Source: an uncultured Phycisphaeraceae bacterium (GTDB lineage: Bacteria; Planctomycetota; Phycisphaerae; UBA1845). From it: 64,000 nt of DNA. The notes below the pieces were generated by a model. That model worked only from the letters and a program-made list of their open reading frames with translations, was not told where the DNA came from and searched no databases. Below, piece by piece: positions 41,341 through 58,472 of the stretch (within the stretch, counting starts at the first letter, position 1; every line of letters begins with the position of its first letter). Both the position numbers and the translations under genes were made by a program. The DNA lies in NCBI GenBank assembly GCA_964405925.1, contig CAYOQG010000002.1:2132-66131 (forward strand), in the 5' to 3' direction.

Positions 41341-41607
41341 TCAATCCGCGGGACGACGGATCGGCGGCGGGCCCGGGAGGATCCAAATCCGGCCCGACTC
41401 GCCCGTTTCCGAGTCTTGAAAGTACAGGTCGACACCTTCCTCTCTGGCCTTAAGCAGATCGTTGTAGACCATTATGGCCTCGCGGATTACCTCCGCGACG
41501 GATTCCTTGCCCGTGAGGCTCTGCAGCCGTTTGAGGTCCTTCAGCCCCTCGTTCGGGAGCCACAGGGTGAATCGGGTCTTCTTCGCTCCGGCTCTTCGTG
41601 GGCTCAT
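41341..41607 (-). CDS. Ribbon-helix-helix (CopG/Arc-like) protein
   Basis: KTRFTLWLPNEGLKDLKRLQSLTGKESVAEVIREAIMVY follows the RHH beta-alpha-alpha pattern. Confidence 0.6.
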   Translation of the reverse strand: MSPRRAGAKKTRFTLWLPNEGLKDLKRLQSLTGKESVAEVIREAIMVYNDLLKAREEGVDLYFQDSETGESGRIWILPGPPPIRRPAD

Positions 41608-41786
41608 GCCTCAACTCCCGTTGGCAATGGATATGCAAATGATATGCATTTTCGCCCGACCGTACAAGCCACACGCGACGACCGTGCAAAGCACTGTGCG
41701 ACCGACGGGGGGATCACCCGGGAGGTGGTCCGTTCCAGGATGAAGAGAGGTCCGGTGGTGCGTGAACCTTTCTTCGTTGCGTACAA

Positions 41787-41897
41787 ATGGTCAATAGACC
41801 CCTCCTTCTGTTTGTGGCTGTGCTCCCAGAGCGCGGTCAGCGACGGGAAGCTCTCGTCGGGTCTGCGGCGAAACAACTCGTTGTGGGCGCGCCCTCG
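41787..41897 (-). pseudogene. N-terminal fragment of a DUF932-like gene (paralogue of 58473..59183)
   Basis: RAHNELFRRRPDESFPSLTALWEHSHKQKEGSID aligns with RAHNELFRRGPDERFDSLVDLWQHCHDEKERSVD of the intact copy, and the nucleotide similarity is also visible. There is no start codon in frame and homology is lost after ~37 codons. Confidence 0.6.
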
Positions 41898-42149
41898 TGC
41901 ACCAGAAGGCTGGTGCCTGACACGCCCCGCGCGTGAGAAAACGCCAGCATGAGCTGACAATTGCTGCGCGGTACGGTAGGAATGCGGAGCGGGTCTTGAA
42001 CCCGTGGTCGTCACGAACGTCAACACGTTGCCGTGGCGCCGTACAAATGGGCGGCATCACTCGGTAAACCCGGCCTCACCAGCCGGGCTAAGAGAGCGGT
42101 CTCACCAACCGCTACGGTGCTACCCGTAGAGCCGGACCGCGTCGAGAGG

Positions 42150-44574
42150 GTGCGCCGTGGTGCGCACCGAGTGAATTCCCGAGTAAATCGGGTGGAGTTC
42201 AGGGACGGACTCCGAGGCGAACCAGCTTACCTGGAGCCGAAAGGTGATGGGGACAAGAGCATGCTGGTGAAGCGGAGGGCGCCGGAAGGCGTGTATGGAG
42301 TCGCTCCGCAACGCCTGAGCGATAAGGTTAAGGCTGGATTGCTTGAACCCCAATGTCCAGCGGTAGAAGCGCAGACCCGTCGGCAGCACGCTTGAGGCCG
42401 GCGCCGCCGACAGCCACGGAATCCGCCTCTCATCCGTGGTAGTCCCTGGTTGGCGGGCGATGCGCAGTGAGCGCATCCAAGGGCATGAGTGGGGAACCTA
42501 CGTCGCTCTAGAACGTTCCTCGGTGACGAAACACGGGATCGCCTAAGGGGCGCGAGCCCTAAGGTGACGGAGTCCTCGTAGTAGTCGTGGGAGTAACGCC
42601 CCGCCAGGGAGAACGGGAAAGCCGTTCACAGGGCGAAGGGGGACAGGTAGTTGTGATGTCAGATCCATGAGGTACGCGAGATGCGGACAGCCGAAACGGT
42701 ACTGAACATCCTACGTGAGAGGGCAACGTGGTTTGCCCGTGGAAGGGCTGTATCGACAGCTCTACCGAACTGACCTGTACCTGCGTGCCTACGCGAAGCT
42801 ATATGCGAACGACGGCGCGCTGACAGCAGGCGTAACGGAAGAAACGGTGGACGGGATGTCGCTGGCGAAGATTGACGCCATCATCGTGGCACTACGGCGC
42901 GAGGCCTATCGCTGGACGCCGGTGCGGCGGACGTATATCCCGAAGAAAAACGGCAAGTTGCGGCCGTTGGGTATGCCGACTTGGAGCGACAAGCTTCTTC
43001 AGGAAGTGATACGTTCGCTCCTGGAGGCGTACTACGAGCCGCAGTTCAGCCATCGCTCACACGGTTTCCGTCCGGGACGCGGCTGTCATACGGCGCTTCG
43101 GGAGATACAAACGAATGGGACAGGAACCAAGTGGTTTATTGAAGGCGACCTATCAAAGTGCTTCGATCGCATCGATCACTCGGTGCTGATGAGCATTCTC
43201 GCCGAGCGAATCCACGATAACCGGTTCCTTCGCCTGATTCGCAATCTCCTGGACGCCGGATACTTGGAGGACTGGCAGTTCAACGCCACTTATAGCGGAG
43301 TGCCGCAAGGTGGTGTGATCAGCCCGTTACTTTCAAATCTGGTACTGGACAAGTTGGACGAGTTCGTCGAGACGAAGCTGATCCCGGCATACACACGGGG
43401 CCACCGCAGGAAGACCTACGCTCCTTATGTCGCGCTGACCGTTGCGGCGTCGCGGGCGCGGAAACGCGGGGATCATGAACGGGCCAAAACGCTCATGCGC
43501 GAGGCTCGACGGCTTCCCTCCAGGAAGCCGGAAGACCCCAACTACCGGCGCCTGTGGTACGTGCGGTATGCCGACGACTTCCTGCTCGGACTCATCGGCC
43601 CGAAGGCCGAGGCAGAAGAGATCAAGCGGAAACTCGCCTCGTATTTACGTGACGAGTTGAAGCTTGAACTCAACAGGGACAAGACGCTCATCACGCATGC
43701 GCGGGATGGGCGGGCGAAGTTCCTGGGGTACGAGGTGCATACGATGCACGCCGACGATCAGCGCGACCTTCGTGGTCAGCGTGGCATCAACGGCGGTATC
43801 GGGCTGCGCGTCCCGCGACACGTGATTAACGAGCATTGTGCTCGGTATATGCGACGCGGGAAGCCGGCGCACCTGCCTGAGCGACTGAACGACAGTGCAT
43901 ACAGCATGATCGTTCGCTATCAGGCAGAGTACGGAGGCCTCGTGCAGTATTACCGGCTGGCGTACAACCTGCATACGCTTCAGCGATTGAAGTGGGTCAT
44001 GGAGGTGTCGCTGGTCAAGACGCTGGCCAACAAGTTCCGCACGACCGCCCGGAAGGTTTACCGGCGGTTTGGAACGCGCCTGGAAACACCGGACGGCACG
44101 TACAAGGTGCTGCAGGTGGAGGCGCCGCGTGGCCCCGGCAAAGAGCCGTTACGGGCTCATTGGGGGGCCATCCCGTTGAAGCGGAACCCCTGGGCGGCGG
44201 TCTGCGAATCCGAGCGGAAGATTTGGAGCGGTCGTAGCGAGTTGCTGGAACGGCTGTTGGCGCAGAAATGCGAGCTTTGTGGTGGACCGGATGATATCGA
44301 AGTCCATCATATTCGAAAGCTCGCCGATGTGCGCAAGAAAGGCCGCTCCCGGCCCAAGTGGATGGAAATCATGGCGGCACGCCGGCGTAAGACTCTCGTG
44401 GTCTGTCGGGCGTGTCATGATGAAATCCATCATGGGCGCTACGACGGAGCTGCGGTCGCGTAGTGCAACTACTGGAGAGCCGGGTGATAAGGAAACTATC
44501 ACGCCCGGTTCGGAGGAGAGGTGTTGGAAAAGCGTCCCGATGCACGGGGATGGCTCGCTGGCATCTTATCCTAC
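42150..44574 (+). mobile_element. Group II intron 1 (RT/maturase/HNH-encoding)
   Basis: The 5' end is GTGCGCCGTGG at 42150. Domain V is at 44477..44511 (GAGCCGGGUGAUAAGGAAACUAUCACGCCCGGUUC). The DVI-like 3' end is ...CAUCUUAUCCUAC at 44574. The intron is collinear with intron 3 in domain I. Confidence 0.8.
42715..44463 (+). CDS. Group II intron reverse transcriptase/maturase with a C-terminal HNH endonuclease domain
   Basis: RT motifs are present (KKNGKLRPLGMPTWSDKLLQ, GVPQGGVISPLLSN, YVRYADDFLL). The maturase X region is YGGLVQYYRLAYN. The HNH domain is CELCGG...VHHIRKL...CRACHDEIHHG. It shares the run YRWTPVRRTYIPKKNGKLRPLGMPTWSDKLLQEVIRSLLEAYYEPQFS with the RT at 56155..57963. The tracked start is a GTG, and the expected ATG (42681) is in another frame. 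Confidence 0.85.
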   Translation: MRGQRGLPVEGLYRQLYRTDLYLRAYAKLYANDGALTAGVTEETVDGMSLAKIDAIIVALRREAYRWTPVRRTYIPKKNGKLRPLGMPTWSDKLLQEVIRSLLEAYYEPQFSHRSHGFRPGRGCHTALREIQTNGTGTKWFIEGDLSKCFDRIDHSVLMSILAERIHDNRFLRLIRNLLDAGYLEDWQFNATYSGVPQGGVISPLLSNLVLDKLDEFVETKLIPAYTRGHRRKTYAPYVALTVAASRARKRGDHERAKTLMREARRLPSRKPEDPNYRRLWYVRYADDFLLGLIGPKAEAEEIKRKLASYLRDELKLELNRDKTLITHARDGRAKFLGYEVHTMHADDQRDLRGQRGINGGIGLRVPRHVINEHCARYMRRGKPAHLPERLNDSAYSMIVRYQAEYGGLVQYYRLAYNLHTLQRLKWVMEVSLVKTLANKFRTTARKVYRRFGTRLETPDGTYKVLQVEAPRGPGKEPLRAHWGAIPLKRNPWAAVCESERKIWSGRSELLERLLAQKCELCGGPDDIEVHHIRKLADVRKKGRSRPKWMEIMAARRRKTLVVCRACHDEIHHGRYDGAAVA

Positions 44575-44738
44575 CGCTTATCCGGTTCGACGGAGGCTCT
44601 GCAGAGTAATCCCGTCTTTCGGAGTAATCCTGCAGTTCTATCCGATATGCGAATGACATTTTGAACCGGGGCGACGGAGACACGCCTCGTCGAGCCGTGA
44701 GGTCTTGCGGAACGACGAGGTCGTAGCAGTTGAAGTAG

Positions 44739-47321
44739 GTGCGTCTCGACGCTTCGAGACAAATCCTGCCAAGGGGGTTCGGGCCGAAGCCCACTTCGCG
44801 TGGGCCCACTCGGGTGGAAGGCTCGTCAGGTTCGTTCAACCTCTGCCAGCGTGGGGAGTTCGCAGCGTGGTGACGCGCGCGACCGGGCTTGGACCAAGCT
44901 CGGGGACCCTCGTCAAGCACGAGGGCTACGAAAAGCTCAGGGCGCGGCGCTAGGCCGCGTGGCAATGTTGGCGAGAGCCAACCTGGATTGGAGGAAAATC
45001 CAGTCCTCACCCCAGCGAAGTTCGGCGATTGCCAGCCGAACGGGCAATAGCTTCTGGGGGACAACGGCGAGTCGTGCGGGGAAGCTATCTCCCCAAGATG
45101 CGAACGTCGTGGATAGCTGATATGGCTAGCCGGTTATTGGCAAACTCGAGGTTCCTAGAATTCGCTGAACACGCTCGACGCTCAGGCGATAACGATAGCA
45201 AATGGAGCGTGGAGGACGAAGCGGACGGGTCGTTGAGCTTACTCGTCCCTCGTATGGCTTCGGTCATGCGGGCGCTCGGTGGTTCCTCAACATCACCATC
45301 GAGCCAGTTCTCAAGCGCGGTACGCCGCGTCAAGGAACCGGAAGAGAGTCTAAGTCAGCGGGCAAATTGCCACGCGAGCAACGCCGGAACCCGACGGTGC
45401 TTCCTCGATTAGGCGAGGATAGGTCGGTAGATGACCAATGCATCGTTCGGGGGCAGCGAGACCGTAGTACTCAGAGACGGTAGGACCGATCACATGGGGA
45501 AGGGTCTCAGGTTCAGTGGTTCCAGATGATTTGGAAACGGGCGGCTGTAGGCCGCCGAACATGGAGGACCATGATCGACGTAACCAAAGAAATGGAACAT
45601 CTGTTTCGCTTGTCGAAACGCGAGCCCGGCAAGCGTTTCAACCGGCTCTGGGCCGTCGTGACGGCGCCGGAGTGGTTGACGCACGCTTGGGCGCAGATCC
45701 GGGGTAACCGGGGCAGCCGAACGGCCGGTATCGATGGCGATACGGCCGCCGGCATCGACCCGGCCCGGATCGACTCGTTATCCAGAAGTCTGCAGGCGGG
45801 CACGTACCGGCCAAATCCGGTGCGTCGCGTCTACATTCCGAAGGGCAACGGGAAGTTGAGGCCGTTGGGAATCCCGACGATCGAAGATCGCATAGTGCAG
45901 CAGGCCTTGCGCATGGTGCTCGAACCGATCTTCGAAGCGGACTTTCTCGACTGCTCTCATGGCTTCCGTAGGAAACGGAGTGTTCATACGGCGTTACATG
46001 ACGTCGCGGTGGCGTACCCTCGCACGAGTTGGATCGTCGAGGGCGACATCGTCGGATGCTTCGATAACATTCCGCACGGAAAGCTATTGGAAGCAGTGCG
46101 CCGCCGCGTGGCGGACGTGAAGGTTGTCAGCCTGATCGGGCGTTTTCTCAAGGCTGGGTATATGGAGGATTGGGTGTATCACAGGACGTATAGTGGGACG
46201 CCGCAAGGAGGCATCGTTAGCCCGCTACTGTGCAACATCTTCCTCCACCAACTGGATGAGTTCATGGCCCGGGAGCTTGAGGCGAATCGACGGCAGACCG
46301 CTCGGGAGGCCTCTCGGCGTGTGTCGAAGGGGTACCAGCGTGTCAGCCGCGAGCTTCGCAAGCGGCGCATGCAATTGAAGCGGGCGTCACGCGCGGAGCG
46401 TCGAGTGCTTCTGGATGAACTCGGCCAGTGGGAGAAGCAGCAGCGACGAGAGCCGTACTTCACGGAACGCCATCCGTGCAAGTTTGGCTACGTGCGCTAT
46501 GCCGATGATTTTGTCGTGATGGTCAACGGCACCAAGGAGGACGCCGAGGCCGTGAAGCGACAAGTAACGGACAAACTGGAGTCGATGGGACTGACGCTCA
46601 GTGATGAGAAAACTAAGCTCACCCACTGGCGAAATCCCGTGACGTTCCTGGGTTTTAACGTCCAGGGACGGCCACGACCGAAGGGCGTCCAGATTACGGC
46701 CATCTTCTCAATCCCACCGGAGAAAGAACGTCAGGTTCTTCGGGAGATCAAGACGGTCTGTAGTTGGAACCAGTTGCCGGAAGCCGACGTGATGTGTCGC
46801 GTCGGCGCGATCTACCGGGGCTGGTGCAACTACTACCGGTTCGCCAGCGGACCGCAGAGCGTGTTCAGCCGCGTGTCGTATCAGGCCTGGTGGCATTATG
46901 TGCGTTATTTGGCGCGTAAGCGCCATGCGCGCATTCCCCAGGTCCTTCGGCACGAGAAACGTGCTGGGCGCCTGCGCACGCTGACGGTGAAGGGACGTAC
47001 GGTGCAGACATTCCATACGAAGTCGGACGGTAAGGACTACTCTCTGAACATTGTTCCTCCAACCACGAGGAGCATTTGGATGGTACCCAAGCCAGACGGC
47101 TGGAATGTCGACCTGCGGCCTCTTCCACCCGATGAGTGGACCCGTTGGCAATACCGGATGAAGCGTTCGACAAACTGGCCACCGCCGACACGTGGGGCGA
47201 TGGTCGAGAGCAGTAATTGGACTGGAGCGCCGGATGCGCGGAAACGTGCTTGTCCGGTGCGGGAAGGGCTGCATGAAAACCAAGCTTCGTGAGAAGTCCA
47301 GGCGTCATGCTTCCACTTCAT
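44739..47321 (+). mobile_element. Group II intron 2 (different lineage; the RT lacks an obvious HNH domain)
   Basis: The 5' end GTGCGTCTCGACGCTTCGAGAC is at 44739. Domain V is at 47227..47260 (GCGCCGGAUGCGCG-GAAA-CGUGCUUGUCCGGUGC, with a CGC triad). The DVI helix is GGGAAG/CUUCC-A-C with a bulged A at 47315. The 3' end is estimated at 47321 (+/-2). The boundaries were hand-folded. Confidence 0.6.
45526..47292 (+). CDS. Group II intron reverse transcriptase/maturase
   Basis: RT motifs include GIDGDTAAGID, KGNGKLRPLGIPTIEDRIVQQAL, GTPQGGIVSPLLCNIFL and YVRYADDFVV. The maturase region is YRGWCNYYRFAS. The C-terminal codons overlap domain V. The start may be M at 45571 or 45592. Confidence 0.85.
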   Translation: MIWKRAAVGRRTWRTMIDVTKEMEHLFRLSKREPGKRFNRLWAVVTAPEWLTHAWAQIRGNRGSRTAGIDGDTAAGIDPARIDSLSRSLQAGTYRPNPVRRVYIPKGNGKLRPLGIPTIEDRIVQQALRMVLEPIFEADFLDCSHGFRRKRSVHTALHDVAVAYPRTSWIVEGDIVGCFDNIPHGKLLEAVRRRVADVKVVSLIGRFLKAGYMEDWVYHRTYSGTPQGGIVSPLLCNIFLHQLDEFMARELEANRRQTAREASRRVSKGYQRVSRELRKRRMQLKRASRAERRVLLDELGQWEKQQRREPYFTERHPCKFGYVRYADDFVVMVNGTKEDAEAVKRQVTDKLESMGLTLSDEKTKLTHWRNPVTFLGFNVQGRPRPKGVQITAIFSIPPEKERQVLREIKTVCSWNQLPEADVMCRVGAIYRGWCNYYRFASGPQSVFSRVSYQAWWHYVRYLARKRHARIPQVLRHEKRAGRLRTLTVKGRTVQTFHTKSDGKDYSLNIVPPTTRSIWMVPKPDGWNVDLRPLPPDEWTRWQYRMKRSTNWPPPTRGAMVESSNWTGAPDARKRACPVREGLHENQAS

Positions 47322-47974
47322 ACCATGAAAGGCCCGCAAGGGCTTGCTGGTCATGCCAAGCAGAGACGGTGCCAAACCGCGAACAATCTGTGTCGAAGGG
47401 TAAGCGGAGCTTCTTGTTTCGTACGCTGAAATCATGAGGTGGCACAGCCACTTGGCTGACCGCTCATGGAAACTATGCCGTCGCGGAAGCACGGACATAC
47501 GACGCAGACCCGGCCGGTAACACGGTCTAGCAACGTGACTGATTGGTGGACAACTGCTGCTAATCCGGGAAGCTCTGCAGCCGCCGGGGTCGTGCCCGGT
47601 GCGCGACACTTGCGCTTGCTCGCAAGAGGTCGGTCGCGTGATTCAAACGCTGCAGAGTGGGAGTGTGGCTCAAGTAGAAGTCCCGAGGAGTCGGGAGCGG
47701 ATTCCGCTGCAAGGCAGTGGCGGGCCGTTTGTGCGTCCGGGTGGTGCCGGATGCGTGGCAACAACGAAAGGGCTGACGGGTATTGATAGCTCGTTTGTAC
47801 GGTGTGCCGGTGCGGAATCGATCCGCAGCGGTCTTCTGGCGAGGTGGTTATGTGGTCACACGCGACCGGCGCGGGAGCGCTGGCCGCATGTGGCGATGTA
47901 CTGACGGTGATAGCCGACGTGCGCCTTGCGCATGCTGGCTGATCGTGTGGTGCTTCGCGCTGCTTCTTATTACT

Positions 47975-48011
47975 GGGCGCGGTCAACTTGGAAACAAGTG
48001 TGACCGCGCCC
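47975..48011 (+). other. Long near-perfect hairpin (16 bp, one bulge, GAAA loop)
   Basis: GGGCGCGGTCAACTTG-GAAA-CAAGT(G)TGACCGCGCCC. There is no T-tract. It lies at the end of a ~650-nt ORF-poor stretch and just upstream of the 48083 operon. Confidence 0.5.
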
Positions 48012-48082
48012 GGTCTGCTGCGCGGGGCGCGTAAGGAATGGCAGTTTGGAAGGAGGTTTCTCGTGTACGACGGAGGATAATC

Positions 48083-48292
48083 ATGGGTTGGTGGAAAACG
48101 GTAAACGGCGGCGTGATCGGTGATCCGGCCGCGGACTACATCGAGCGGCTTGCGAGCATGGAGCTGGTTTTCGTCGAGCCGGCCGACTTACCCTGGAAGG
48201 TACGGGAGTGCCTGGCGGCGCTCTACCTGGAGGGCATCGGTCGGCCGCCGACGGACGACGACCTGCGCGCATTGCTCTCGTTCTGCGGGTGA
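48083..48292 (+). CDS. Hypothetical small protein (69 aa)
   Basis: An RBS (cggaggataatc) precedes ATG 48083, and the sequence is protein-like (MGWWKTVNGGVIGDPAADYIERLASMEL...). Confidence 0.5.
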   Translation: MGWWKTVNGGVIGDPAADYIERLASMELVFVEPADLPWKVRECLAALYLEGIGRPPTDDDLRALLSFCG

Positions 48293-56073: not shown

Positions 56074-58472
56074 GTAGAGTAGATGGCTGACGAGGTATTC
56101 CGACGAATCGGAACCCTTTTCCAACCATCCCTCCCCGAACCGGACTTGACCCTTTCAGATCATCCGGCTCTCCAGTGTCTTCGCGTCCTTGCGTGTCCTT
56201 GTCGGGCGTCCGTCGTGGATCGCCCGATGACAAGCGTGGCAAACCACCAGGGTCTTGCGACGGCGCGCGGCCATCACCCGAACCCACAGCGGTTTGTCCG
56301 ACCGTCCCGGCCTGCTCAAATCCTTGAGCGCGCGAATGTGATGGACCTGAACGGTTTCCCGTGATCCACACAACTCGCACTCATCGGCAAGCAGGCGTTG
56401 AACCAGTTCCGCCATGTTGATCATGGGAACCGGTTCGCGGTCGACAAGTTCTGTGTCGAGCCTCCGGGCCAAGGATATGGCACCCCAGCGAGCAATCAAC
56501 GGCGGTTTGTCGCCGCGATCGATCCGAACTTCCAGCACCCGTCGGGGGCCGTGCTCGGTCTCGATCGTTGTGCCGTACCGGTCGTAGATCTTCGGAACGC
56601 TGATCCGCAACTTGGCGGCCAGCGTCCGCATCAACGAACCGTGCATGGCCCATTTGAGCCGACTGAAGTCACGAGTGTTGTGAGCCATGATGTAGTAATT
56701 CACGATGCCTCGATACACACTCTGATGCTGGGCCACGATGTCAAACACCGAATGCTCCAGTAGTTCAGGGCGGTGTGCCGGTCGACCGTGTTTTACATAC
56801 GGCTCACTCTTAGCTCGGATGACGTCCTTTGGCACCCTCAGGCCAATGACTCCGTTAACGGATCGTTGTCCATTGGTGTGCTTCCGGTCGTCCTGCGTCA
56901 CGCACAGGTCGTAGCCGAGGAATCTCGCCTTCTCCGAGCGCCCATGCGTGATGAGCGTTTTCTCTTCGGAGAGTTCCAGCTTGAGCTGCTCCCGAAGGAA
57001 TGAGCCAAGCTGGTGCTTGATGCCCTCAGCCTCCTGGCGTGTCCCAACGAATCCCAGCAGGAAATCATCGGCGTACCGAACGTACTTGAGCCGCCGATAC
57101 TCCGGGTCGTCCATGACTCGCGACGGAAGCTGCTGCGCCTGCTTGAAAAGCCGGCGGGCCTCTTCCTCACGTCCCAGACGCCGGAGATACCGCGACCGAT
57201 GGTACAACCGTCCGTACTCCGGATTCGGTTTCCGATCATTTCCCCGGGTGTTCACCGGGATGAGCGTCTGCTCGACGAACTTGTCCAGCCGGTCAAGGTA
57301 GATATTACTGAGGATGGGGCTCACGATTCCCCCTTGCGGCGAGCCGCTGAGGGTGCCGTGATACTTCCAGTCCTCCAGGTATCCAGCCTTGAGTAGGTTC
57401 TCGATCAACCGCAAGAAGCGATTGTCGAGGATTCTCTCGCAGAGCATCGATACCAGGACCGTATGGTCGAGATTATCGAAACAGCCGCGGATATCCCCTT
57501 CGATGAACCAAACCGTTCCTCTCCAGTTGAAGTAGATTTCCCGCAGGGCCGTATGACAGCCACGGCACGGCCGAAACCCGTGGGAATGATCGCTGAATTG
57601 CGGCTCGTAGTACGCCTCCAGGAGCGAGCGAATCACTTCTTGCAGAAGCTTGTCGCTCCAAGTGGGCATGCCCAACGGGCGCAGTTTCCCGTTCTTCTTC
57701 GGGATGTACGTCCGCCGAACCGGCGTCCAGCGATACCGCTCGAAGCGCAAAGCATCAATGATGTCCTGAATCTTCGTAAGCGACATTCCGTCAACGGTTT
57801 CTTCCGTGACACCGCGCGTCATGGCCCCGTCGTTGCGGTAAATCTTCCCATACGCCTGGAGATACAGCGCCGGCTTGTAGAGTTGCCGATACAGATTCTG
57901 TAGCGGCAATCCACGCTCGCCACGACTACGGATGATGTTCAACAAGACTTCGGCGTTTCGCATCCTGCGTACCCTGGTCTCCTGAACATCGAAGACACCT
58001 GCCTCCCTTCGCCATGTGGTCGGCTTTCCCGACCTCGGACTACTACGGAGGCTCCGTCACCTTAGGGCTCGCGCCCCGTAGGCGATCCCGTATTCCCTAA
58101 TCGTTAGCATTCACAGCGTGACTTAGGCGCCCCGTTCGTCCCCTTGAGCGGTCTCCTTGACCGCCGCCTGCGGACCAGAAGGTCCGACGGCAATCACATA
58201 ATCCGTCGTCAGCCCGCAGCATCGCTAAGCGTGGTCGCGATGGATGTGCGCAATGCATCACCGGAGACTGGGATTCAGGCAGTTTAGCTTTCGCCATATC
58301 ACGCGGGTCTTGCGGCACTCTGCCGTACACGCTTTCCGACAGCCACCGCTTTACCAGCATGCGATTGTCCCCCTTGGCTTTCGCCGCAAGGTAGGCTGGT
58401 TAACCCAGGAGGTTTCCTTCTGAACCTCCTCCCGACTGTGTCGGGTCTCTAACGACTGGTGAAACGGCGCAC
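56074..58472 (-). mobile_element. Group II intron 3 (paralogue of intron 1) inside the DUF932-like gene
   Basis: The minus-strand 5' end is GTGCGCCGTTTCACC at 58472. Domain V is at 56137..56170 (GAGCCGGAUGAUCUGAAAGGGUCAAGUCCGGUUC). The 3' end is ...CCAUCUACUCUAC at 56074. Length is 2399 nt. Confidence 0.85.
56155..57963 (-). CDS. Group II intron reverse transcriptase/maturase/HNH endonuclease
   Basis: The N-terminus is intact (MRNAEVLLNIIRSRGERGLPLQNLYRQLY). RT motifs are SPQGGIVSPILSN and YVRYADDFLL. The X domain is YRGIVNYYIMAHN. The HNH domain is CELCGS...VHHIRAL...CHACHRAIHDG. Confidence 0.9.
   Translation of the reverse strand: MRNAEVLLNIIRSRGERGLPLQNLYRQLYKPALYLQAYGKIYRNDGAMTRGVTEETVDGMSLTKIQDIIDALRFERYRWTPVRRTYIPKKNGKLRPLGMPTWSDKLLQEVIRSLLEAYYEPQFSDHSHGFRPCRGCHTALREIYFNWRGTVWFIEGDIRGCFDNLDHTVLVSMLCERILDNRFLRLIENLLKAGYLEDWKYHGTLSGSPQGGIVSPILSNIYLDRLDKFVEQTLIPVNTRGNDRKPNPEYGRLYHRSRYLRRLGREEEARRLFKQAQQLPSRVMDDPEYRRLKYVRYADDFLLGFVGTRQEAEGIKHQLGSFLREQLKLELSEEKTLITHGRSEKARFLGYDLCVTQDDRKHTNGQRSVNGVIGLRVPKDVIRAKSEPYVKHGRPAHRPELLEHSVFDIVAQHQSVYRGIVNYYIMAHNTRDFSRLKWAMHGSLMRTLAAKLRISVPKIYDRYGTTIETEHGPRRVLEVRIDRGDKPPLIARWGAISLARRLDTELVDREPVPMINMAELVQRLLADECELCGSRETVQVHHIRALKDLSRPGRSDKPLWVRVMAARRRKTLVVCHACHRAIHDGRPTRTRKDAKTLESRMI

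Follow-up and report, generated by a model that had tools for sequence, protein, structure and literature searches.

In a 64,000-nucleotide (nt) stretch of a contig from an uncultured Phycisphaeraceae bacterium (hereafter the window), positions 42037-47804 very probably make up a single circularly permuted (CP) group II ribozyme of ~950 nt that has been invaded by two mobile group II introns, the first of which belongs to a lineage that naturally homes to domain V (D5) of CP ribozymes. The arrangement is a double twintron, the outer partner being a CP ribozyme rather than the intron of a gene. An initial annotation of the locus had described a nest of several intron-type elements, with a mobile group II intron seated inside the catalytic D5 helix of a second ribozyme of group II type, and this description holds. 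Its view of the host as the decayed 3' stump of a canonical intron does not, as the host is a complete CP ribozyme with domains D1-D3 downstream of D5-D6 (Table 1).

The sequences flanking the first intron (intron 1, 42150-44574), GAGCCGGACCGCGUCGAGAGG and CGCUUAUCCGGUUC, join into a D5 hairpin as previously proposed. Together with the next 58 nt, the rejoined flanks fold as this D5 hairpin followed by a D6-like hairpin (-41.2 kcal/mol, z = -3.3), which has an unpaired, bulged branch A at 44640 and ends ...CCGAU at 44646, the 3' splice site following. A group II-like D5 with AGC triad, bulge, and tetraloop, and a D6 with bulged branch A, are present in the host family. An exact-pattern scan of genome contigs for the joined D5 gave no match. 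When used as a query against related genomes, the joined flanks retrieved an uninterrupted copy at 87% identity from a different genus (G021), and uninterrupted homologues of this type are recognized as Intron_gpII above the gathering threshold (45.8 bits for G021, and 48.7 bits). The uninterrupted version of the host that the initial annotation proposed to look for was thereby found, and it is a permuted ribozyme rather than a stump intron.

In-silico removal of 42150-44574 and 44940-47321 leaves a cleaned host sequence of 974 nt, collinear end to end with uninterrupted loci in G218 (83% identity), G021 (82%), G088 (80%), and G106 (77%), and 65-72% identical to >20 further uninterrupted loci. 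The conserved host unit in G021 reaches the homologue of ~47800. Because 22 uninterrupted homologues run from the counterpart of 44647-44939 straight into the counterpart of 47322 onward, the boundaries of the second insertion can be set at 44940-47321. Host-RNA matches were obtained in 80 of the 279 genomes of the same order, and the source assembly has a single CP host copy, that of the window. A decayed CP ribozyme is present in a genome of the same genus (L004, G005:C152, 1493-1660), where P1, P2, and the 5' half of D5 abut the first D1 hairpin as a result of large internal deletions.

According to the earlier view of the locus, intron 1 landed in what was left of a canonical group II intron, a decayed D5-D6 stump, and an unrelated third intron starts in the downstream exon at the GTGCG of 44739, making the locus a retrohoming hotspot or a graveyard. 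The absence of a D1 or reverse transcriptase (RT) upstream of D5, correctly observed at the time, would fit such a history, as would the presence of three D5-D6 units at the locus and the resemblance of GTGCG to a 5' splice site. It is nevertheless extremely improbable, as the 22 uninterrupted homologues retain the entire 950-nt unit, long-range covarying helices connect the part around D5 with the distant 3' end, and the host sequence is without excess decay: the window ribozyme departs from 4 of 283 family-invariant columns, within the range of 0-13 seen in uninterrupted members, a family-level conservation that speaks against a graveyard. Moreover, the sequence after GGUG at 44738 is variable or deleted in the homologues, and the alternative intron start at 44940 is backed both by a 7-bp pairing of exon-binding site 1 (EBS1) with intron-binding site 1 (IBS1) and by relatives starting GGGCGCGGCGC. 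The second insertion thus starts inside host D1 and not 165 nt beyond intron 1, and the 8-bp hairpin (44685-44720) and GTGCG at 44739, formerly read as an inter-intron spacer and intron start, are internal to host D1. The lower helix of D5, thought to be identical in all three elements, is only similar among them (GAGCCGGA, GAGCCGGG, and GCGCCGGA).

The secondary structure of the host RNA was predicted with RNAalifold from a 23-sequence alignment (A2) and comprises 285 pairs. A standard pair is formed in 94.7% of cells, compared with 79.6% when the 3' letters are shuffled and 33-41% when the 3' partner is slid by 1-3 columns, and 175 of the 285 pairs show compensatory double changes. Covarying helices include the one joining the two termini and the one pairing the segment before D5 with the 3' end, in addition to the D1 basal stem CGGA/UCCG (44675-78 with 47564-67). 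The loop of P1 and the loop of a hairpin near the 3' end form a pseudoknot that covaries in 22 of the 23 sequences, the partners being UCACCA/UGGUGC in 13, UUACCA/UGGUAA in eight, and UAACCA/UGGUUA in one. D5-D6 lies upstream of D1-D3 in one contiguous RNA, based on full-length collinearity and on the positions of RF00029 D5-D6 matches, which exceed the gathering threshold in 12 of 15 uninterrupted loci and fall solely near the start of the unit, ~100 nt in from its 5' end. No group II D1-D4 family match was obtained for any element with Rfam at E <= 10, D1 not being addressed by those models. The splice sites are internal and reversed in order, with an invariant ..CCGAU, a linker of 13-32 nt (22 nt in the window), and an invariant GGGCGAC. 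We also noted that an 11-mer from the 5' strand of the end-closing helix, CGTACAAATGG (42040-42050), recurs 260 nt upstream at 41780-41790, with CGTTG preceding both; the upstream occurrence may have been left behind by an earlier copy or by a rearrangement.

This architecture is that of the CP group II ribozymes described as "T-large" RNA by Roth, Weinberg, Vanderschuren, Murdock, and Breaker (iScience 2021; PMC8637638). These are RNAs of ~900 nt with the order D5-D6-D1-D2-D3, reversed internal splice sites (5' site GGGCG, 3' site NU), a short linker of a predicted 15-86 nt released as a circle, P1 and P2 stems, pseudoknots between P1 and the 3' end and between the P2 and D2 loops, no internal open reading frame (ORF), and an associated gene, acpG (PMC8637638). 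Two members, Cte-1 and Gdi-1, have been visualized by cryo-EM (PMC13717195). Like the class, the host is ~900 nt long with the order P1-P2-D5-D6-linker-D1-D2-D3 and no internal ORF, has a GGGCG 5' site, a ..U 3' site, and a short linker with predicted circle release, and shares the P1-loop/3'-end pseudoknot, an adjoining acpG, and a location on mobile DNA. Rows of the published alignment share motifs with the host in the same order (AAAGCUCAA..UG.AA, CUAA..GGGAA, GGGAG.GUG...AGUAG.A, and CGAAAG), and host-clade motifs were not found in the published CP RNA alignment. A covariance model of the D3 block (model R1), which scores 128.6 bits on the window as a self-match, also found matches on plasmid pK2D_1 of Planctomycetes bacterium K2D (39.6 bits, E 5e-10, with a D5-D6 match 800 nt upstream) and on plasmid pA26H1 of the Firmicute Planococcus (21.1 bits, E 7e-5), in each case immediately 5' of an acpG-like gene.

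The gene downstream of the ribozyme points in the same direction. Its 243-amino acid (aa) product aligns with AcpG sequences from the published alignment (57% over 106 aa, 65% over 80 aa; E 5e-44, 4e-36, and 3e-8 for individual rows, the first being that of the 57% match), and the homologue lies downstream of the ribozyme in ~25 homologous loci. Compared with Thermus AcpG alone (hhalign), the AcpG-like family gave a nonsignificant E of 0.2, and tblastn of the 243-aa ORF produced no match reaching pTT8. The host clade differs from the Thermus pTT8 member in that its planctomycete-type D5-D6 is canonical-looking and passes Rfam RF00029, whereas that of pTT8 does not. It further differs from the published class in having a long helix that pairs both termini and in being interrupted by mobile introns, which has been reported for none of the published members.

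Two introns in tandem, with truncation at both ends, would give the same order of D5-D6, exon, D1-D3, and group II introns can work in pieces. The host could on these grounds be two truncated ORF-less halves of canonical introns placed head to tail (3' half, short exon, 5' half) or a trans-acting split intron. We judge this very improbable given that the boundaries are identical in >20 genomes, that acpG is syntenic, that the GGGCG 5' splice site is as in the published CP class, and that no splicing restores flanking coding exons. Furthermore, the outer ends are bridged by the covarying 15-bp helix, by ACCCGU/ACGGGU, and by the loop-loop pseudoknot, as expected for one permuted ribozyme.

Intron 1 has all the features of a mobile group II intron, namely a 5' GUGYG, a D5-D6, an RT/maturase ORF in D4, and an EBS1 complementary to the 5' exon. 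Its D5-D6 matches Rfam RF00029 at 44475-44574 (54.3 bits), and it interrupts the 3' strand of host D5's upper helix, 2 nt past the GAGA tetraloop. EBS1 CCUCUC (42426-42431) is complementary to IBS1 GAGAGG (42144-42149), as the initial annotation's suggested comparison of the 5' exon with EBS loops had anticipated, and the EBS1 position is supported by covariation in the sister lineage (GUGAUU/AAUCAU vs. GUGGUU/AACCAC). An EBS2-IBS2 interaction, in which GGCGC at 42279 could pair with GCGUC, had no support in relatives and was dropped. The intron-encoded protein (IEP) comprises RT, X, and HNH domains (RVT_1, Intron_maturas2, and HNH) and runs to 44463 from either 42681 (native ATG) or 42715 (GTG, long frame).

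The same D5 position, 2 nt past GAGA, is filled by related introns in four further CP copies from two other genera. In G023:C88 and G023:C90 the first 54 nt of the intron are 98% identical to intron 1, the CP copies themselves being 92% and 72% identical to that of the window. A related intron occupies the D5 position in G216:C66, and on a single contig, G216:C3, positions 20-125 of the family hidden Markov model are followed by a 70%-identical intron and then by positions 127-946. In the tree of RT proteins, those of the D5-homing introns group together (support 90/93), with introns of DUF932-type genes, represented by window 58472-56074 and G096, as their sister group; Rfam places a group II D5-D6 unit on the minus strand at 56074-56172. 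Contig-end CP fragments G188, G238, G158, and G023:C67 were inspected for further intron ends and none were found. Because four more CP copies are filled at the same position and the RTs form a clade, these comparisons indicate that the CP-ribozyme D5 is the homing site of the intron 1 lineage and not a chance hit, extending across genera the earlier suggestion of D5 as an intron's target. It is quite possible, if somewhat short of probable, that this lineage is specialized on CP D5 and still active, since two divergent CP copies in one genome have introns with 98%-identical 5' ends; circle production would then depend on mobile-intron splicing, as a ribozyme-within-ribozyme switch.

The second invader has its D5-D6 at 47225-47321 (RF00029, 54.4 bits), and its EBS1 UGAGCUU (45234-45240) pairs over 7 bp with IBS1 AAGCUCA (44933-44939). 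Its insertion site, AAGCUCA followed by ACCAUG, splits a nearly invariant D1 helix in which seven of nine pairs never vary. The IEP (45526-47292) consists of RT and X (RVT_1 and GIIM) and has no endonuclease domain. The element shows the features of a mobile intron except for its 5' end, which is GGGCG rather than GUGYG. The IEP is most closely related to proteins in a Pyrinomonadaceae metagenome-assembled genome (51-64% identity), whose introns also start GGGCGCGGCGC (L051 1885, L052 1882) and sit in another site, and more distant relatives start GUGCG (GUGCGCCACGAGG). With GGGCG, the second invader starts with the pentamer that also marks the 5' splice site of the CP class; kinship with CP ribozymes was considered as an explanation and set aside, as the GUGCG start of the distant relatives makes a quirk of the sub-lineage more likely. 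No nucleotide relatives of this intron were found in the order, and none of its protein relatives is inserted in a CP RNA; the window locus is the only example found of this intron within a CP ribozyme.

We infer that both introns reverse-spliced into the ribozyme gene, each at a site base-paired by the invader's EBS1. If the host is transcribed, the primary transcript would first lose both invaders by their own splicing, and only then would the host ribozyme fold. By analogy with characterized CP members, branch A44640 of a ribozyme with an active rejoined D5 would attack the 5' splice site at 44668/44669, and the freed 3' OH of the linker would attack the 3' splice site at 44646/44647, yielding a 22-nt linker circle.

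Several observations weigh against the reading of the locus as a twice-invaded CP ribozyme. The P2-D2 pseudoknot, the best-supported one of the published class, was sought, and no consistent complementarity was found in the host family. Pairing of the candidate host EBS1 with the 3' end of the linker (5-6 bp) is perfect in only 11-12 of the 23 sequences, the window having one mismatch. Using nhmmer, the family profile gave four collinear weak matches to the published CP rows and pTT8, which are not significant (best E 0.079), and model R1 scored 14 bits on Thermus pTT8 at a nonhomologous place. Since architecture and acpG match the class and the direct pTT8 statistics are not significant, we assigned the host to the CP class as a divergent branch of it. 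In the window copy itself, the rejoined D5 is aberrant relative to all 22 homologues, with one extra C and an invariant U.G pair changed to C/A (42137-42138, 44580). Lastly, the RT frame of intron 1 is broken near codon 14, its G-run (GGG, 42721-42723) being two G short of the G5 in the 89%-identical G023 copy, so that the native ATG at 42681 is out of frame with the 582-codon ORF starting at GTG 42715.

These last changes raise the prospect that the nest is a dead relic, in which the anatomy is as described, intron 1 no longer splices, and the mutated D5 inactivates the CP ribozyme. The 2-nt G-run deletion at the RT N-terminus contrasts with intact RT frames in the G023 and G216 intron copies, two of the four departures from invariant columns and the 1-nt insertion lie in D5 beside the intron insertion, and this is the sole CP copy in the assembly. 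Conversely, outside these changes the ribozyme is no less conserved than uninterrupted members, and intron 1 retains EBS1, its D5-D6, and the long open frame from GTG. The 69%-identical RT of the paralogous intron at 58472-56074 might also act in trans, and the homopolymer difference could be either a real inactivation or an assembly error. Because the RT frame of intron 1 is broken, the nest may be nonfunctional in this genome; a dead relic is a prospect to be taken seriously, albeit on balance rather doubtful.

A group II intron in domain V of another group II intron is known from the Euglena gracilis chloroplast psbF twintron (Copertino and Hallick 1991, as summarized in PMC8393795), and bacterial group II twintrons from Thermosynechococcus (PMC2882425) and Trichodesmium (as cited in PMC8393795). 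As far as that summary describes it, the Euglena psbF twintron likewise has a group II intron in D5 of another group II ribozyme, the outer element folding only after the inner one has spliced. The present locus departs from this pattern in that the permuted ribozyme hosting the insertions stands alone, with no coding exons on either side, so that it behaves like a twintron yet falls outside the strict definition; two different invaders share one host; and a single lineage has used the D5 site repeatedly across genera, which makes it a homing site rather than an isolated event.

In bacteria, mobile group II introns such as Ll.LtrB (in ltrB) retrohome to specific sites under the guidance of EBS1-IBS1 pairing. 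Like introns of the Ll.LtrB type, both invaders have an RT/maturase ORF in D4, a D5-D6, and an EBS1 able to pair with the final 6-7 nt of the 5' exon, and the homing sites of both are in highly conserved sequence. Unlike them, the target is the RNA gene of another group II-type ribozyme, and the second invader, lacking an endonuclease domain, has GGGCG in place of GUGYG at its 5' end. CP ribozymes (2021) and twintrons were each known already; in full-text literature searching, neither mobile introns inside CP ribozymes nor the CP class in planctomycetes turned up, and as far as it shows, the combination and the D5 specialization appear to be new.

CP ribozymes, described in 2021, are now studied structurally and as circular-RNA tools. 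They are abundant in this bacterial order, and mobile group II introns in turn target their genes, one lineage homing to the most conserved catalytic helix. If this is true, the CP active site exists in invaded copies only after the invader, and here also the second one in D1, has left. Such copies provide natural material for studying CP expression and selection, the rebuilding of an interrupted D5 by splicing, and ribonucleoprotein (RNP) recognition of a target closely resembling the intron's own D5. For genome annotation, a D5-D6 match without an upstream D1 need not be a dead intron, and a downstream GTGCG need not be a 5' splice site.

Table 1. Features of the invaded CP ribozyme locus and its downstream neighbors, in window coordinates
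Feature	Position	Strand	Details
End-closing helix, 5' strand	42037..42051	+	Pairs with 47790-47804; 15 pairs, 9 compensatory across 23 sequences
P1 hairpin	42069..42087	+	All 6 stem pairs covary; loop UCACCA 42076-42081 pseudoknots with UGGUG 47742-47746
P2 hairpin, loop CUCACCAA	42095..42113	+	Helices in 23-sequence structure; P2 covaries
ACCCGU	42122-42127	+	Just before D5; pairs with ACGGGU 47776-47781
D5, 5' part GAGCCGGACCGCGUCGAGAGG	42129..42149	+	Ends 2 nt past GAGA loop; IBS1 GAGAGG at 42144-42149
Mobile group II intron 1	42150..44574	+	GTGCG start, ...CCUAC end; D5-D6 44475-44574
D5, 3' part CGCUUAUCCGGUUC	44575..44588	+	Fold and homologue alignment
D6	44591..44646	+	99.6% of cells paired, 6 covarying pairs; GUUCUAUCCGAU nearly invariant
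Linker AUGCGAAUGACAUUUUGAACCG, predicted 22-nt circular RNA product	44647..44668	+	Family linker length 13-32 nt
5' splice-site motif GGGCGACGGAGA and 5' part of D1	44669..44939	+	GGGCGAC invariant; GGGCG is published CP consensus; contains hairpin 44685-44720 and internal GGUGCG 44738-44743
Mobile group II intron, second invader	44940..47321	+	Starts GGGCGCGG; D5-D6 47225-47321
D1, 3' part, begins ACCAUGAAAGG	47322..47567	+	Homologue alignment and structure
Candidate host EBS1 loop CUUGUUUC	~47411-47420	+	In D1 3' part
D2	47572..47658	+	15 pairs with compensatory changes
J2/3 GUGGGAG, D3 (47666-47775), ACGGGU (47776-47781)	47659..47781	+	D3 holds AGUAGAAG and pseudoknot-partner hairpin
End-closing helix, 3' strand	47790..47804	+	Partner of 42037-42051
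Conserved 69-aa ORF	48083..48292	+	Between ribozyme and acpG; tblastn matches at same position in ~14 homologous loci
acpG homologue, 243 aa	48350..49081	+	Downstream of ribozyme

Upstream of the ribozyme, the minus strand encodes a ribbon-helix-helix-like ORF of 88 aa (window 41341-41640, start 41607) with a palindromic ATATGCAAATGATATGCAT just upstream of its start; the ORF is not kept beside the ribozyme in G021. Neither this ORF, nor the 69-aa ORF, nor the 243-aa ORF has a match in Pfam or NCBIfam. Between the 3' end of the ribozyme and the 69-aa ORF is a very stable long hairpin at 47950-48030 (-59 kcal/mol, z = -7.6), and G021 has one too.

An AlphaFold model of the AcpG homologue was obtained with a pLDDT of 86.5 and a pTM of 0.78. 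In the PDB, its two best matches, 8t2s_D (E 3.5e-3) and 8fli_B, are each the protein component of a group II intron RNP, followed by other palm-type polymerases (RTs and RNA-dependent RNA polymerases); TM-scores are low throughout (0.3-0.4), with no match reaching E 1e-3. This gives a weak hint that AcpG might be a reduced intron RT/maturase.

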